64,000 nt of DNA from an uncultured Verrucomicrobiae bacterium. Its GTDB lineage: Bacteria > Verrucomicrobiota > Verrucomicrobiia > Limisphaerales > Palsa-1400. Under the pieces are notes generated by a model. It saw only the letters and a list, made by a program, of their open reading frames with translations, had not been told where the DNA came from and ran no database searches. Below, piece by piece: positions 31,374 through 38,417 of the stretch (position 1 is its first letter; the number at the start of each line of letters is the position of its first letter). The stretch lies in NCBI GenBank assembly GCA_963764165.1, contig CAVXRD010000004.1:608001-672000 (forward strand). The letters are read 5' to 3'. A program made the translations under genes and the position numbers.

Positions 31374-31598
31374 AGCCGGAACGATTCAGCTTGGACTGGG
31401 ACCGCGACCGCCTCGGTCGCTCTGGCTGGCCCACGCGAAAGCGTCTTCCCAATAATTTGTTCTGATCTCTCGCCAGCCAGCCTTGCGCCACCATCACCAT
31501 TTGGTGAAGAATCGGACACAGCATGGGTTTTCGGCGGGACGCCGAAAATAGCGGTCGAGACGACCGCGCTCCCTCAAAGCAAGGGAGTCGTTCCGGCT
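31374..31598. mobile_element. MITE-like REP-containing element, copy 1 (intron-free)
   Basis: Termini AGCCGGAACGA...TCGTTCCGGCT; 31420-31573 is identical to 35271-35424. Confidence 0.7.
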
Positions 31599-31615: not shown

Positions 31616-34021
31616 TTACTGGTTCCCTTTTAGCTGGAAGAACTGGGCGCTGCCTGTGGTGGGACTCGTGTATGGGCTGGTCGCGCCCGGAATGTTCGTA
31701 AATGGACCCGGCAGCAAAGGCGCGCTCTGGAGCGAGAAGGCCGCGTTCGTCCAACTCAGCACGACGGCGTTCGGGATCTGCAGAATGTTCAGCGGAATCG
31801 GGACGAGCATCGGCGCGGCAATCGGCAGTGTGTATGAAAAAAGTGCGCCGTCATTAAATGCGCTGCCGCTATAAACCGAACCGAAAAGCGCGCCATTATA
31901 CAAAGTCAAACCTCCCGTCGGCGCAGCGCCATCCGCGTAACTGAAACTGTAAAGGACGGCGAAGCCCGTTCCGTCGGTGTTGATTTGGAAAATGTTGCCT
32001 CCGCTGCCGTTGCCCGCCGCCGAGGTGGTTCCGTAAAGAATATTCCCGGAAAGCACCAGCGGCGTCACAGGAGAAGCGCCGTCAAGCCCGCTGAAATTAT
32101 GCATCGACAGGAATCCGGTGCCATCGGTATTGACCTTGAACAAAGTCCCGAACCGATAAGCGCCACCTTGTTTTGTTGAACCGTATAGCGTGCTGCCGCC
32201 AACGGTCAATTGAGCGGCCGGATAGGAGCCATCGTTGAACGTAAAAGAATGAAGAAGCTGGTAATTGGAGCCATTGGTCGAGACGGCATAAACACCACCC
32301 CAAAAGCTAAACTCCGCCGTGCCATATAACATTCCCGCGGAAAATACCGGACCTGCCACCGGTTCACTAATGCTCGAGAAGGAAAAGCTGTAAAGGTTGG
32401 AGAAACCGGAGCCGTTGGTCTGGATGGTGAAAACACTCCCCACACCCTGGGAGCCGCCAAATTCCAAAACGCCATACAAAGCGGCGCCGTCGAATGCCAA
32501 TCCCGGCGCAAGATAACTCGATCGGTAAAGATTGGTGAAGCCAGCGCCATTGGCGTTGATGCCAAAAATGGTCGATGAGGTCGTGCCATAAATCGCGCCA
32601 TTCGCTGCAATCAAGTTGCCGGACGGATGGGAAGCATTCGTCGGAAAATTGAACAATGTCGAAAATCCCGAGCCATCGGTGTTCATGCTAAAGATCGATC
32701 CGTCACCGCTGCCGCCGCCGCTGACGGTTGTGCCATAGGCAACGCCATCGGCAAACGCAAGACTGCCCGAGGGGTTGGCGCCGTCGGCGTTAGTAATCGA
32801 TGTGGCCACCGAATTGGTAAAAGAATAAAATCCGCTTGGGGAAGGCGAGTAGCCAATCGGCTGCCGATAGACTGCGCCATTGCCGCTGGCGCCCGTGGAG
32901 GTCGTCCCATAGAGATAAAAGCCCGAGGCAACGAGTCCAGATTGTGGAATAATTCCCGTGCTGCCGTTCAAGCCTCCCGTGCTCAATCCGCCCCCCGAGA
33001 TCGCACCACTGAAGAAGGCCCCGCCCTCATATGTGCCTCCATTCGGCGTCGTTCCGTAAAAAGTGGAGTTTGTCACGAATAGCTGGGCCTGCGGATAAAA
33101 AGCAGTCGATTCTCCCGAGGATAAGGCATCAAGAATGGCGAAGTTTGAACCGTTCGTGGACAACGAAAAGATGGTGCCGCCATATTTGCTGCCGCCATCT
33201 TGGGCTGTCCCATAAAGCACGTTGTTATACAAAGAAAGAGGAGCCAGCGGATTTTCTCCGACCGCAAAGCTGCACTGAACAAGCGTCTCAAACCCTGTGC
33301 CGTTGGTGCCCATGCTAAAGACGGTTCCATCGCCATTCGTGCCTCCCCACAGCGCGGTGCCATAAAGTGTCGCGCCGGAAACAATGACGGCAGCCATTGG
33401 GTTGGCGCCGTCGGAATTTGTATTTGAGACCAGCGGGCTAAAACTATAGAGGTTTGAAAAGCCTGTTCCATTCGTATTGATCGAAAAAATGGCCCCTGTT
33501 CCGTTGTTCCCGCCAAACTCGGTTGTTCCGTAGAGAACACCGTTGGCGAGGGTCAGGTCCGCCATCGAACAGGCCCCGTCCGTGTTCGTGCCGTTTTGTT
33601 CGGCGCTAAAGCTGTAGAGATTCGTGAATCCGCTCCCGTTGGTTGAGATGGCGAATACCGCGCCATTGCCATTGGCCGCGCCATGCGAGGTCGTTCCATA
33701 GAGCGTGGTTCCTGCCAGCACCAAGCCGGCGGACGGATTAAGGCCATCGGTGGTGTTGGTGAAGTATTTCAACACCGTGAATGAAAGCCCGTTCGACGAC
33801 ACTTTGAAAATCTCCCCGCTCACGTTTCCCGAGCCGCCCTGAAACGCCCCGTAAAAAGTCCCGTCCGGGCCCACCGCCAGCTTCGCGATGCAATTGGTGC
33901 CGTTTCCGTTGGGCAGCGCGCTAAACGTGTGAAGCATGGTGAGGTTGGACTGGCAGTGAGCCGACATTGCGCCAAGCAATAGGCCCGCGAAAAAAAAGGA
34001 AACGATTTTCAGGAATTTCAT
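31616..34021 (-). CDS. Secreted GloVer (Gloeo_Verruco) tandem-repeat beta-propeller protein
   Basis: Signal peptide; many repeats of DGANP.A.L..SG.TLYGTT..GG..G.GT(I/V)F.(I/V).TNG.GF..LYSF; QFFQL terminus. Confidence 0.9.
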   Translation of the reverse strand: MKFLKIVSFFFAGLLLGAMSAHCQSNLTMLHTFSALPNGNGTNCIAKLAVGPDGTFYGAFQGGSGNVSGEIFKVSSNGLSFTVLKYFTNTTDGLNPSAGLVLAGTTLYGTTSHGAANGNGAVFAISTNGSGFTNLYSFSAEQNGTNTDGACSMADLTLANGVLYGTTEFGGNNGTGAIFSINTNGTGFSNLYSFSPLVSNTNSDGANPMAAVIVSGATLYGTALWGGTNGDGTVFSMGTNGTGFETLVQCSFAVGENPLAPLSLYNNVLYGTAQDGGSKYGGTIFSLSTNGSNFAILDALSSGESTAFYPQAQLFVTNSTFYGTTPNGGTYEGGAFFSGAISGGGLSTGGLNGSTGIIPQSGLVASGFYLYGTTSTGASGNGAVYRQPIGYSPSPSGFYSFTNSVATSITNADGANPSGSLAFADGVAYGTTVSGGGSGDGSIFSMNTDGSGFSTLFNFPTNASHPSGNLIAANGAIYGTTSSTIFGINANGAGFTNLYRSSYLAPGLAFDGAALYGVLEFGGSQGVGSVFTIQTNGSGFSNLYSFSFSSISEPVAGPVFSAGMLYGTAEFSFWGGVYAVSTNGSNYQLLHSFTFNDGSYPAAQLTVGGSTLYGSTKQGGAYRFGTLFKVNTDGTGFLSMHNFSGLDGASPVTPLVLSGNILYGTTSAAGNGSGGNIFQINTDGTGFAVLYSFSYADGAAPTGGLTLYNGALFGSVYSGSAFNDGALFSYTLPIAAPMLVPIPLNILQIPNAVVLSWTNAAFSLQSAPLLPGPFTNIPGATSPYTSPTTGSAQFFQLKGNQ

Positions 34022-34036
34022 TGTGCTAGAAGTATG

Positions 34037-34357
34037 TCAGAATTTTCGAGCGCGACTCTGGGCAAACCTTGCATGAATGTCAAGTTGGAGAGCAGCGTTA
34101 AACGGCCTTTGAGCGCGAGACGGAATTCTTCGTCGGGCCTGAACCTTCCCAACGTGTGGATATTGGATGCGCACAGATGCATTTTTGCCCGTTTGACTGC
34201 CGCAAGCCCGGAAACCTTTGAAAAATTTTGTGATGGCGAAGGAATAAACAGAAAACGAGGCCTTTCCCCTTGTGAAGAAAAAGCACCAAAGCGCGATGCA
34301 CACCATCAATGCCAGGTATCCAACATCCACCCACGTAAACGCATAGCCTAAAATCAA
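34037..34357 (-). CDS. Possible small membrane protein or remnant
   Basis: Hydrophobic N-terminus only; TTG start; no recognisable motif. Confidence 0.25.
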   Translation of the reverse strand: MILGYAFTWVDVGYLALMVCIALWCFFFTRGKASFSVYSFAITKFFKGFRACGSQTGKNASVRIQYPHVGKVQARRRIPSRAQRPFNAALQLDIHARFAQSRARKF

Positions 34358-34480
34358 AAGTCACCCACCTCCTAAGTTGAGAACTTGTCGGATGCAATCG
34401 GGAATTGGAATGGGAATTCCGGCGCACACCCATGTGCATTCGCTCGCACAGGAGCGCGCTTCGATCAATCACCGCCTGTA

Positions 34481-35451
34481 AGCCGGAATGATTCAGTTGG
34501 ATTGGATAGGGGTAGGGAGAGCGGTTGCCCGCTCCCCTCCCTCCAAACCGGACGGGCGGATTTCCCGCATCCGGCTTTCCAGTCGGTGGTCTCGGTGCCG
34601 AGGTCGGCGCGCGAGGACTCAGGCTGAGGCTTAGGAGATCAACCCAAGTCGCGCTTTGGAGGCACAGATCTTCTGCCTCCATAAATTCCTCTTGCGAGGT
34701 TTTCCGACATGCACTTGTTCCACTCCTCTGCTGTGTTACTCTGCCTTGCTTAGCCAGGGGCACTCGCGGCAGTTTGTTTTGCAGTGGCGTTTCCCTCATG
34801 CTTCCACCTTCCTGTCCTCCTTAGCTTCACAGTCATTACTCGTTTCATCGCTACTATGAGGACTCTGATTCCTGTCCTGCTCCTTCCAGCACCAGCACAG
34901 GCATCCTTGATTCATGAACCTGCGTTTCCAGACATTCCGTCTCCAACCACCCCATGCGCCTCCGCTCCGGCTATGCTTTGTGCTCCGGGCGGGCTTCGCC
35001 ACCGCTTCACCTTTCAGTCTGTCGGCGATCATTCGGACTTCGTTCATTGCTAGCAGTCTCATCAGTCGCATCAGGCCGCATCGAGTTTGTGTCGCGGGCC
35101 GTTGTGGCCCGTCAGTTCTACGGACTGTCCTTTCGCTTCCAGTTGCTCTCCACGCCCTGTCGCCAGAACGCAGTTACTTTCAACTCGTGGCGGGAAGCAC
35201 CGCCACAGAGGGACTTCCACCCTCCTATGCACGCTCATTCTCAAGCGCACGAGCGCGACCGTCCCGGTCACTCTGGCTGGCCCACGCGAAAGCGTCTTCC
35301 CAATAATTTGTTCTGATCTCTCGCCAGCCAGCCTTGCGCCACCATCACCATTTGGTGAAGAATCGGACACAGCATGGGTTTTCGGCGGGACGCCGAAAAT
35401 AGCGGTCGAGACGACCGCGCTCCCCCCGAAGCAAACTGAATCGATTTGGCT
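34481..35451. mobile_element. MITE-like REP-containing element, copy 2, interrupted by a group II intron
   Basis: AGCCGGAATGATTCAGTT...AACTGAATCGATTTGGCT termini; length without intron is 226 bp versus 225 bp for copy 1. Confidence 0.7.
34506..35250 (-). ncRNA. Group II intron ribozyme, ORF-less (IEP deleted)
   Basis: 5' end GTGCG; domain V GAAAGCCGGATGCGGGAAATCCGCCCGTCCGGTTTG (about 34579-34544, AGC triad, GAAA loop); domain VI ending CCTACCCCTAT; domain IV only about 200 nt. Confidence 0.92.
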
Positions 35452-35480
35452 AAGCTTCTATGCCGACGGCATTGCGGACG

Positions 35481-38417
35481 CTACACCAGATCCGCGAGCG
35501 AGGCTCTGAATTGGTCGCGTTTGGCCTGCCAATCGGCAAGACGCTGGCGGTGTTCGGCGAGCACGTCGGGCGGGGCTTTACCTGAGAAATTTGGGTTGGC
35601 CAGCTTGGCTTCGACTTTTTGAATCTCCAACTCGACCTTTTGCAGTTCTTTGGTGAGGCGCTCTTTTTCCGCGCTGCGGTCCAATCCGGCGAGCGGCATA
35701 TACAGCTTCCCGCCGAACCCCGGGTGCAACACCGGTTCGCCCTTGGCGGGCTCGTAACTGGTGCGATGCTCGATGCCTTCCGCGCCTGTCAACACTTGGA
35801 TGACCCGCTTCTCCTCGGCGTCGATGTCGTTGGGGGCGCTGTAGACCAGATTCAATTTCTTATTGGCGGGAATTTTGTATTGCGCGCGCAGGTTGCGAAT
35901 TTCGACCACCAGCTTTTGGCGGGCTTCGATCAATTCCAGCGCCTCCTCGAAGAGACCGTAGTGGGTCTTGAAATCGTCGTCCAGCGGCTTCGGCCACGGG
36001 GCGAACATGATGGTCTTGCCCCCTTGATCGGGCGGCATGTCGCTGGCGTAACCCATGCCATTCCACAATTCCTCCGTGATGAAAGGAAGAAATGGATGGA
36101 ACAGCCGCAGCGTGTGCGACAACACGAAATCCATCACCGCGACGGTGTTGGCGCGGCGCGCGGCGTCGGTGCCTTGCAAAGCTGCTTTCGAGGATTCGAT
36201 ATACCAATCGCAGTATTCGCTCCAGAAGAAGCGGTAGAGCGTCGCGGCGGCATCGCTGAATTTATAATCGCCAATCGCCGCGTCCATTTCACGCATGGCG
36301 GCATCGAGCTTCAGCAAAATCCAGCGGTCATCGAGCGTCAGCAATTTGGGATCGATCTCGCCCTGGACTTCGCCTTCCTGCATTTGGCGGAAGCGGCAGG
36401 CGTTCCAAAGTTTGTTGCAGAAATTGCGGCCCAATTCCACCTGCTGTTCGTCAAACAAAACGTCCTGGCCCAACGGTGCGGAACGCATCACGCCAAAGCG
36501 CAGCGCATCCGCCCCGAATTTCGCGATAAGATCAAGCGGGTCTGGCGAATTGCCGAGGCTCTTGGACATTTTGCGCCCCTGTTTGTCGCGGATGATGCCT
36601 GTAAAATAAACATTCTTGAACGGCATCTCGCCCATGAATTCGTAACCCGCCATGATCATGCGCGCTACCCAGAAGAAAATAATATCCGGCCCAGTGACGA
36701 GATCGGTGGTGGGATAGAATTTGGCCAGCGTTTCGGTTTTCTCCGGCCAGCCCATCGTGGCAAAAGGCCAGAGCCAGGAACTGAACCAGGTGTCGAGGAC
36801 ATCGGGATCGCGCTGCATTTTAAAGGCATCGCTTTCCAACAATGCGGCCTGTTCGTCGCTGTAGTTCCCACATACCACTACATCGAATTTTTGACTGCTC
36901 GAAGTCTCGCACAAACTACTGCATTGGCCATAATCAAATCCGGCTCCATCTTCAAGCCCCACGAGTCTTATGTCCTCTGTTGGGTAATCCAGAGAAAGAA
37001 GATTTGCCAGATCCACCGCCTCTTTCGCATTTTCCTCGGTGGATCGCCATACTGGAATCCGATGCCCCCACCAAAGCTGGCGGCTGATGCACCAATCTTT
37101 GATGCCTTCCATCCAGTGGTCATAGACTTTCGCCCACCGCTGCGGATGAAACTGCATTTTTCCCGGGAGCGCGGACGTCCCGCCGAACGGAATCCCCCGC
37201 GACGAAGAAGCATCCGGCGGGACGCCGGATGCGGCGACCGGGACGGTCGCGCTCCCCTCTTGCGCTACACAGACGCGGGATTTCTCCACGCTCGGATACT
37301 TCAGGAACCATTGTTCGCTCAGGCGTGGTTCAATTGGGACATCAGCCCGCTCGCTGTAACCCACCTTGTTCGTGTAAGGTTCTTCCTTCGCGAGCGCGCC
37401 AAGTTCCTTCAATTTCTCCACCGCAAGTTTGCGCGCTTCGAAGCGATCCAACCCGCGCAAATCCGCCCCTGCGGCTTCGCTCATTTTTCCATTCGCCGCA
37501 ATTACTTCGATTTGCGGTAAATTGTGTCGGACGCCGATCTCGAAATCCGCCTTGTCATGCGCGGGAGTCACTTTCAAAACGCCGGTGCCGAATTCAAAAT
37601 CCACATGCTCATCGCCCACGATGGGGATTAGCTTTTGTTCGCGCGGCAATTCCTGCGGCAGCGGACGCAGCACATGCTTGCCGATGTAGGGAGTGTAACG
37701 CGGATCTTTCGGATTGACTGCCACCGCGGCATCACCGGGAATCGTCTCGGGCCGTGTCGTGGCGATCGTCAAAAACGTTCCCGGCTCCTCGGAGATCTCC
37801 ACCTTGAAATAATAAAGGAAACCCTTTTGCTCCTTCATGATCACTTCTTCGTCGGATAACGCGGTAAGTGAGGCGGGGCACCAATTCACCATGCGCTTCC
37901 CGCGATAGATGAGACCCTTCTTGTAAAGCTCGACGAAAACTTTTTGCACGCAGCGCGAATAATCCGCGTCCATCGTGAAACGCTCGCGCGTCCAATCGCA
38001 CGAGGCGCCCAGCTTTTTCAATTGCTGGATGATGATGCCGCCGTGCTTTTCCTTCCATTCCCAGACGCGCTCGAGAAATTTCTCGCGGCCCAAATCATCG
38101 CGGTGCTTGATCTCGCCGGATTTTTTCAACGTGCGCTCCACCACGGTTTGCGTCGCGATGCCCGCGTGATCGGTGCCGGGGAGCCACAGGACTTCCTTGC
38201 CGTCCATCCGCGCCTTTCGGGCGAGAATATCTTGAATGGTGTTATTGAGAACGTGCCCCAACGTCAGAACACCCGTGACGTTCGGCGGCGGGATGACGAT
38301 GGAATACGCCGGCTTCTTCGAGTGCGGATCGGCGGTGAAACATTTCTGATCGAGCCAATACTGGTACCATTTTTCCTCGACCGAATGCGGTTCGTAGGCT
38401 TTGGAAATTTCCGGCAT
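35481..38417 (-). CDS. valS: Valine--tRNA ligase with two insertions
   Basis: PPPNVTG.LTLGH (HIGH variant), GTDHAGIATQ, WCISRQLWWGHRIP, DVLDTWFSS, KMSKS, C-terminal coiled coil. Confidence 0.98.
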   Translation of the reverse strand: MPEISKAYEPHSVEEKWYQYWLDQKCFTADPHSKKPAYSIVIPPPNVTGVLTLGHVLNNTIQDILARKARMDGKEVLWLPGTDHAGIATQTVVERTLKKSGEIKHRDDLGREKFLERVWEWKEKHGGIIIQQLKKLGASCDWTRERFTMDADYSRCVQKVFVELYKKGLIYRGKRMVNWCPASLTALSDEEVIMKEQKGFLYYFKVEISEEPGTFLTIATTRPETIPGDAAVAVNPKDPRYTPYIGKHVLRPLPQELPREQKLIPIVGDEHVDFEFGTGVLKVTPAHDKADFEIGVRHNLPQIEVIAANGKMSEAAGADLRGLDRFEARKLAVEKLKELGALAKEEPYTNKVGYSERADVPIEPRLSEQWFLKYPSVEKSRVCVAQEGSATVPVAASGVPPDASSSRGIPFGGTSALPGKMQFHPQRWAKVYDHWMEGIKDWCISRQLWWGHRIPVWRSTEENAKEAVDLANLLSLDYPTEDIRLVGLEDGAGFDYGQCSSLCETSSSQKFDVVVCGNYSDEQAALLESDAFKMQRDPDVLDTWFSSWLWPFATMGWPEKTETLAKFYPTTDLVTGPDIIFFWVARMIMAGYEFMGEMPFKNVYFTGIIRDKQGRKMSKSLGNSPDPLDLIAKFGADALRFGVMRSAPLGQDVLFDEQQVELGRNFCNKLWNACRFRQMQEGEVQGEIDPKLLTLDDRWILLKLDAAMREMDAAIGDYKFSDAAATLYRFFWSEYCDWYIESSKAALQGTDAARRANTVAVMDFVLSHTLRLFHPFLPFITEELWNGMGYASDMPPDQGGKTIMFAPWPKPLDDDFKTHYGLFEEALELIEARQKLVVEIRNLRAQYKIPANKKLNLVYSAPNDIDAEEKRVIQVLTGAEGIEHRTSYEPAKGEPVLHPGFGGKLYMPLAGLDRSAEKERLTKELQKVELEIQKVEAKLANPNFSGKAPPDVLAEHRQRLADWQAKRDQFRASLADLV
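37165..37256. repeat. REP element inserted in frame in valS
   Basis: GGGAGCGCG...CGCGCTCCC termini; hairpins CCGGCGGGACGCCGG and GCGACCGGGACGGTCGC of the same family as 35251-35424. Confidence 0.85.

Follow-up and report, generated by a model that had tools for sequence, protein, structure and literature searches.

A probable orphan, an ORF-less group II intron, points to a non-IIC lineage that may choose insertion sites by a DNA hairpin and a short guide

A group II intron of 745 nt, whose ORF was lost via an internal deletion, occupies positions 34506..35250 on the minus strand of the window, the 64,000-nucleotide stretch of DNA analyzed here. We consider it best explained, with a probability of about two in three, as a stranded copy of an endonuclease-less lineage that would choose its sites by a DNA hairpin together with a short guide. 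Taken by itself, the window copy is of minor weight, being a bacterial intron without an ORF and probably an orphan. The hairpin-seeking habit, credited to class IIC introns, is, as far as sequence comparison indicates, present in a non-IIC lineage across many bacteria.

Intron structure and remnants of the ORF

The boundaries given in the earlier note were confirmed, the intron starting with GTGCG at 35250 and ending with CCCTAT at 34506. An Infernal search matched the Rfam model Intron_gpII at 34579-34506 with 53.3 bits against a gathering threshold of 40; this is the sole Rfam match across the window, where none of the D1D4 models reached threshold. The hallmarks of a group II intron are all present, namely the GUGYG start, the domain V triad, the branch A of domain VI, the AY end and six domains, which could be placed by a consensus fold from seven relatives. 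The full intron folds with a z-score of -4.1 relative to 20 shuffles.

Domain I (34906..35245, like all intron parts on the minus strand) is closed by a helix between 35245-35241 and 34910-34906, and is followed by domain II (34867..34905) and by domain III (34814..34863), where four departures from columns invariant in the seven relatives were found. Domain V (34545..34577) comprises 33 nt with a 5-nt loop, and the AGC triad claimed for it lies at 34576-34574. Domain VI (34506..34544) has its bulged branch A at -8 (34513). A putative alpha loop (35195..35200) forms 6/6 pairs with alpha' (34973..34978), the latter placed from the intron fold and from the rows of alpha/alpha' pairing; 4-6 such pairs are found in 19 further near-clade rows, and since there is little covariation the assignment remains a predicted one. 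In the ribozyme, 12 of 150 consensus pairs are broken (0-13 in the seven relatives) and 17 of 302 invariant columns are departed from (6-30 in the relatives). Judged from its sequence, the window RNA is not clearly decayed.

Domain IV (34580..34813) was delimited by blastn and tblastx against five long relatives. It is short (~215 nt) and without RT motifs, as had been described, but the view that it holds only the start of an IEP has to be corrected, as N- and C-terminal remnants are both present. The IEP start opens with ATG at 34799 and extends over 20 codons up to a 27-nt deletion, and a second, drifted IEP piece is located at about 34723-34674. After a deletion of ~1.1 kb, the C-terminal remnant follows at about 34649-34583.

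The target repeat and its surroundings

The intron was found in a host repeat (35251..35424, minus strand) in which two inverted palindromic arms flank a variable spacer. REPIN is the term for such paired-arm palindromes, and the repeat is REPIN-like. The intron splits the right arm one base inside its tail, and the tail of the palindrome resumes at 34505, past the intron. The target arm (35251..35271, minus strand) is composed of a 7-bp hairpin (35271-35255) and the 4-nt IBS1 (35254-35251). Taken alone, the 35-nt exon is no more stable than its own shuffles (z -0.5). The multicopy palindromic target proposed earlier is borne out by the genome of the window (G000), in which exact copies of the arm number 6, rising to 29 when 2 mismatches are allowed and to 57 with 3, and in which 27 of 38 left arms are paired with a right arm (99-177 nt). 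Thus a multicopy short palindrome, a 4-base foot and inverted arm pairs, the features of a REP/REPIN target, are found together. The foot of the window repeat is GGAG, a variant of GTAG; the GTAG foot and its complement CTAC are described for REPs in the accessible text of PMC8266576, where GGAG is absent. Ten matches to Y1_Tnp were detected in G000; the target arm is absent within 900 nt of the eight that were checked, and pieces of the repeat family lie 1.4 and 2.3 kb from two of the matches. G000 also has two hairpin families of larger size that share the target geometry (187 and 92 exact copies); neither contains a full intron.

Insertion was precise, as claimed, and without target duplication, with support from an empty allele in G000. 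The closest empty allele among those compared, G000:C2:1343696-1343860, agrees with the intron flanks over the final 13 nt of the 5' exon and the initial 15 nt of the 3' exon, a closer match than is given by the uninterrupted copy 1 (31418-31374) with which the earlier note had aligned the exons. The sequence of copy 1 is as quoted there, but it is a paralogue with a damaged target arm and not the pre-insertion allele. It belongs to an empty paralogous repeat (31399..31573, minus strand), whose target arm differs at four positions, including IBS1 -3. Comparison of 35424-35271 with 31573-31420 reveals identity over 154 nt, but 4 of the final 20 nt are different, as is the 3' flank; the four differences of copy 1 all fall within the target arm. 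Other members of the repeat family are at most 78% alike over their full length, and the near-identity of these two neighboring repeats therefore suggests a local and recent gene conversion or recombination event around the 801-aa gene. The 801-aa protein (34021-31616, minus strand) contains many short repeats and gave no Pfam match. A third paired-arm copy of the repeat, with a damaged right arm, is located at 59239-59098 (minus strand).

The valS gene (35481..38417, minus strand) ends at 35481, upstream of the intron and on the same strand, as had been stated. Read-through from valS into the intron is possible, though a terminator-like hairpin (35418-35402), the left arm of the repeat, intervenes between them. 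This terminator call is weak because four such sites were found against 2.9 expected, and the same scan does not call the target arm. No sigma-70 promoter was predicted within 33900-35800. In valS itself, an in-frame member of the same palindromic repeat family at 37259-37154 (minus strand) accounts for ~35 extra residues, so that here a repeat has entered the coding sequence of a gene that is essential.

Relatives of the intron

DNA searches gave matches in 20/61 and 24/401 related genomes, the genome of the window counted. The RT-encoding sibling that had been anticipated was found in a related genome, as a 447-aa IEP with RVT_1 and GIIM and without an endonuclease domain. With this IEP as query, we obtained 41 genome loci in several phyla and 568 metagenome matches, the best 80 of which were retained as a held-out set; of these 80, 68 had a boundary, and they provided 51 new exons and 44 scored introns. 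A total of 73 distinct 5' ends were placed, and 11 matches were dropped for want of a callable boundary. The lineage exon set comprises 63 distinct exons, and EBS1 was assessed on 43 dereplicated introns that retain the region. Two loci (L047, L053) start with GCGCAC; their strongest hairpin lies 15-16 nt upstream and EBS1 is mismatched in part. Possibly the 5' splice site has shifted in them, or the boundary was called wrongly.

Hairpins upstream of the insertion sites

Exons were screened for 7-bp stems in which 6 or more positions form Watson-Crick pairs by a fixed-register scan, which replaced a count of 'spacer 4' exons because the latter was biased by exon cutting. A stem ends at -5 in 37/63 exons, at -4 in 13, at -6 in 10 and at any other offset in 0-3, with 0-2 for -1 to -3 and for -7 to -12, and the rule is satisfied by 0.7% of random positions in the genome of the window. 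Counting -4, -5 and -6 together, the tabulation of 5' exons gave an upstream stem in 45/63 exons and in 29/44 sequence families, compared with a background of 464/16,895 GCTCC sites (2.75%) in one genome (G000). In the held-out set, drawn from the best 80 of 568 matches, 35/51 exons have the stem; the strict rule missed 16/51 there and 18/63 in the lineage set, and one held-out subclade has its stem farther upstream. Under a crude non-ORF mask, which hides many repeats, the background rises to 5-25%. Folding z-scores of individual exons are weak, with a median of -1.7 and 29/63 at or below -2.

Counting of the targets in four genomes showed them to be multicopy in three (16 in G014, 141 in G019 and 20 in G221), and the fourth target is single-copy within 2 mismatches in a genome that is 80% complete (G412). 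The closest kin introns, in G014 and G019, occupy the same arm as the window copy. Exon ends are mostly CTC or CTA (34/63) and lack a T run. As the next base is mostly C, the cleavage point lies within the reverse complement of a REP foot of the GTAG/GGAG type. The earlier idea of REP targeting holds for the multicopy arm as a target, but such targeting is not special to the ORF-less form; the entire lineage shows it, also in members that encode an RT, and many unrelated hairpin families are involved.

By analogy with IIC introns, an intron-protein particle would dock on a stem of ~7 bp that ends ~4 nt before the site, and reverse splicing would take place there, the likely substrate being single-stranded DNA of the replication fork. 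That the stem is recognized by its shape, that insertion is single-stranded and that priming occurs at the fork are all inferred from what is described for IIC in parts of PMC10190682 and PMC4424553. The stems are mostly arms of multicopy REP-type palindromes, as several of the targets show, and because the cut falls within the reverse complement of their 4-base foot, the insertions are intergenic.

At one locus (L232, NZ_CP022993 23112-30179), two identical inverted introns flank three tyrosine recombinase genes, with the same hairpin upstream of each.

Guide sequences

The hexamer GAGCAC at 34985-34980, which the earlier note took for EBS1, was rejected. Its pairing with the exons is at chance over six columns (Watson-Crick observed/expected 8/7.6, 15/14.4, 14/15.1, 13/9.7, 3/5.4 and 7/6.4), and it sits in the hairpin whose loop bears alpha'. 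Covariation points instead to UAGCA at 35052-35048 (minus strand), which is paired at exon positions -2, -3 and -4 and mismatched at -1 and -5. Throughout the lineage, EBS1 is formed by the five bases after a conserved CUGC and varies in step with the exon end. From -1 to -5, Watson-Crick pairs were found in 37, 35, 41, 34 and 25 of 43 introns, with shuffle means of 16.0, 26.7, 27.5, 13.4 and 17.5, and all four pair types are present at EBS1 positions 1-4. The corresponding values for the 44 held-out introns, taken from the best 80 of 568 loci, are 43, 39, 40, 33 and 22, with shuffle means of 18.0, 20.6, 28.5, 16.8 and 17.3; both shuffle tests overstate significance because the introns are related. 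Position 5 is paired in 7/22 introns of the near clade versus 20/21 of the far one, and EBS1 is 4 nt long in the near clade and 5 nt in the wider clade.

An unbiased column scan of 31 introns chose the EBS1 columns for exon positions -1, -3 and -4. EBS2 was sought by scanning all columns of 31 introns, and no contiguous complementarity was detected for positions -6 to -25; any IBS2 would lie inside the target stem. EBS3, a G at 34947 (minus strand), has its partner in the C that opens the 3' exon. Its covariation is weak, with 18 G-C, 4 U-A (all from one genome) and 3 other combinations among 25 introns, and with 31 G-C and 6 G-T among 37 held-out introns (best 80 of 568). As a first step, covariation thus shows pairing of EBS1 with the terminal nucleotides of the 5' exon and, less strongly, of EBS3 with the nucleotide that follows.

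It is conceivable, though unlikely, that homing depends on sequence only, so that a 5-6-base match of EBS1/EBS3 to the REP foot suffices, selection removes insertions elsewhere and the hairpin is a bystander. The EBS1 covariation is strong by itself, the spacing could be set by REP architecture alone given that 34/63 exons end in CTC/CTA, and 25% of non-ORF CCTAC sites bear a hairpin. However, a match of only five to six bases is available at thousands of sites in each genome, and hairpins are found at only 6% (87/1398) of non-ORF GCTCC sites against about 70% of the insertion sites observed. Moreover, two Burkholderiaceae plasmid introns keep the hairpin though the tail is not a REP foot, and L275 and L282, among the best 80 of 568 matches, are introns that each adjoin the 3' end of a second intron, whose domain VI provides the upstream stem. 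We favor recognition of both the hairpin and the short guide.

Fate of the window copy

The genome of the window contains one full copy of the intron. A 156-nt fragment of the 5' part (G000:C1:318526) is located behind a different, CTA-tailed hairpin, and a 3' relic (G000:C1:1371401) carries two broken IEP scraps. No match to the RVT_1 profile was detected in this genome, whose assembly is 97% complete in 5 contigs. The deletion junction was sought in 31 family genomes and is absent from all 30 others, four of which belong to the same genus. A plasmid search gave nothing closer than 49%. None of the public sequencing runs contains more than 9% of the words, and the contigs from four public runs, being pieces of relatives without the splice joint, are uninformative as to habitat, expression and splicing.

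The earlier note proposed an active non-autonomous intron that is mobilized in trans, as is known for the ORF-less TeI3; this model finds little backing here, and we consider it quite unlikely. The core domains are intact, and the ORF remnant is 76-79% identical to the long relatives compared with 86-94% between the 5' ribozyme part and its nearest relatives, a drift of the remnant as if the RNA had been maintained after the loss of the ORF; other short introns of the lineage also exist (693, 703 and 777 nt). Against this stand the single full copy, the lack of RVT_1 and of any helper besides two broken IEP pieces, a junction unique among the 31 family genomes and an EBS1 mispaired at -1. A driver IEP, several copies sharing the deletion and good EBS/IBS pairing, which characterize TeI3-type elements, were not found, and the TeI3 copies are described as sharing one deletion with mostly good EBS/IBS pairing (in the part of PMC2882425 available). 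A helper IEP could be hidden in assembly gaps. On the sequence data the window copy is most likely an orphan and not a mobile non-autonomous element. The three short introns (L012, L014 and L229) have a well-paired EBS1 and lie behind hairpins, and their sequences make them better candidates for trans mobility than the window copy.

A mismatch at -1 is seen in 1/44 RT-bearing held-out introns (best 80 of 568), where the boundary seems to have been called wrongly. Among kin in which EBS1 is retained, the closest are two copies in G014; their EBS1 is GAGCA, and they occupy the same arm. We infer a history in which an RT-encoding ancestor with EBS1 GAGCA inserted at this site, and in which ~1.1 kb of the ORF was lost and EBS1 position 1 changed to U later. 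The window copy would now be immobile and probably splices poorly, because the genome has no helper and the mismatch adjoins the splice site.

The EBS1 change might alternatively represent retargeting in progress, in which the guide switched from CTC- to CTA-tailed repeats and the C1:318526 fragment is a daughter copy, but this appears very improbable. The fragment differs from the window copy at 2/123 positions, the fewest of eight compared (3 in the G014 copies), and it does lie behind a CTA-tailed hairpin; UAGCA is also found at CTA sites in the intact relatives L164, L239, L241, L249 and L253. The fragment stops before EBS1, so its guide is unreadable, two versus three differences cannot order the events, and the only further UAGCA at a CTC site belongs to a truncated relic (L168). 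Domestication as a ribozyme that only splices, in the 3' region of valS and like C.te.I1, is hardly credible: a 2015 review (PMC4424553, in part) describes bacterial introns that lack both ORF and helper as rare and the known example as self-splicing, but no gene is interrupted here, the splice-site pairing is damaged, and the junction is missing from the other family genomes, same-genus ones included.

Relationship to known intron classes

IEP trees were constructed by FastTree, with no formal one-clade test. The lineage IEPs form one clade (support 100) apart from 8-13 class C proteins with the CGC triad (100), and one D, two g1, one g2 and one g3 reference fall outside the lineage; the named references in the trees thus cover C, D, g1, g2 and g3, and the deeper joins are weak. 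A short domain V with the CGC triad is linked to IIC. The claim that the window intron is not IIC is in agreement with both its AGC domain V and the separation of the lineage IEPs from class C.

The lineage would, from its sequences, work like IIC while failing IIC membership. It shares with IIC (as described in part of PMC10190682) a DNA stem-loop just upstream of a short IBS1 and IBS3, a short EBS1 without EBS2 and an endonuclease-less IEP. Unlike IIC, it has a separate IEP clade and a larger domain I, and its domain V is of full length, with a loop of 5 nt and the AGC triad. The stems are ~7 bp and end 4 nt before the site, whereas the IIC consensus is near 12 bp plus a spacer, and the targets are REP-type arms instead of U-tailed intrinsic terminators or attC. 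The stem-loop motif has been called exclusive to IIC in the E.r. IIC structure paper (Chung 2022, PMC10190682), and hairpins before IIB introns at attC are a matter of speculation in the accessible text of Sonbol 2021 (PMC7923331).

The RNA resembles that of IIE/IIF introns (Nagy 2013, PMC3753933, in part) in the 5-nt domain V loop, in alpha' on the tip of a stem-loop and in a similar ribozyme size. An apparent EBS2-IBS2 duplex is described there, in contrast to the lineage, where none is detectable, and in the trees the lineage IEP stays apart from both the g2 and the g3 reference. The pBN3 intron, 'Unclassified' in the available part of Miura 2022 (PMC8919778), falls inside the lineage clade at 100. 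A second 'Unclassified' member (L233) is placed elsewhere in the tree, since U1-U3 are not one group. Introns of g6, U1 and U2 are reported to be often located right after predicted terminators, some without a U tail, and the accessible text has no REP targets, EBS1 or RNA structure in its account of U1-U3; its table leaves the U cluster of the pBN3 intron unstated, and the figures may bear on the cluster.

Like TeI3 of Thermosynechococcus elongatus (Mohr 2010, PMC2882425, in part), the window intron has an internal ORF deletion with N- and C-terminal remnants, and in TeI3 too families diversify through EBS change. TeI3 is a IIB1 intron with EBS2, 17 copies that share one deletion and driver IEPs, whereas the window intron is one copy with no driver and a damaged EBS1. 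The use of multicopy intergenic palindromes as landing sites is shared with REP-targeting insertion sequences (Tobes and Pareja 2006, PMC1525189, in part), where a table row also records, for a group II intron of P. putida, 2/9 copies located at REPs. Those insertion sequences are moved by DNA transposases, whereas the lineage is a retroelement whose guide tracks many REP families.

Implications

The wider reading, for which we see about even odds, is that of a widespread non-C intron class that parasitizes REP palindromes, in which the stem is read by its shape and the foot by a 4-5-base guide, the ribozyme is IIE/F-like with an AGC triad, and single-base guide changes lead to movement between host REP families. 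Our literature search, with subscription papers mostly outside its reach, found no paper on a REP-targeting intron lineage or on such guide tracking. If this reading is true, retroelements would join the known parasites of REP repeats, and a concrete targeting rule would be supplied for unclassified IEP types. Recognition of stem-loops would be either ancestral to endonuclease-less introns or twice evolved among them. In the accessible text of PMC10190682, stem-loop recognition by IIC is described as a forerunner of the EBS2 domain, and a natural test of this scenario would be provided by a lineage outside class C whose RNA is IIE/F-like and lacks EBS2 and whose targets are hairpins.
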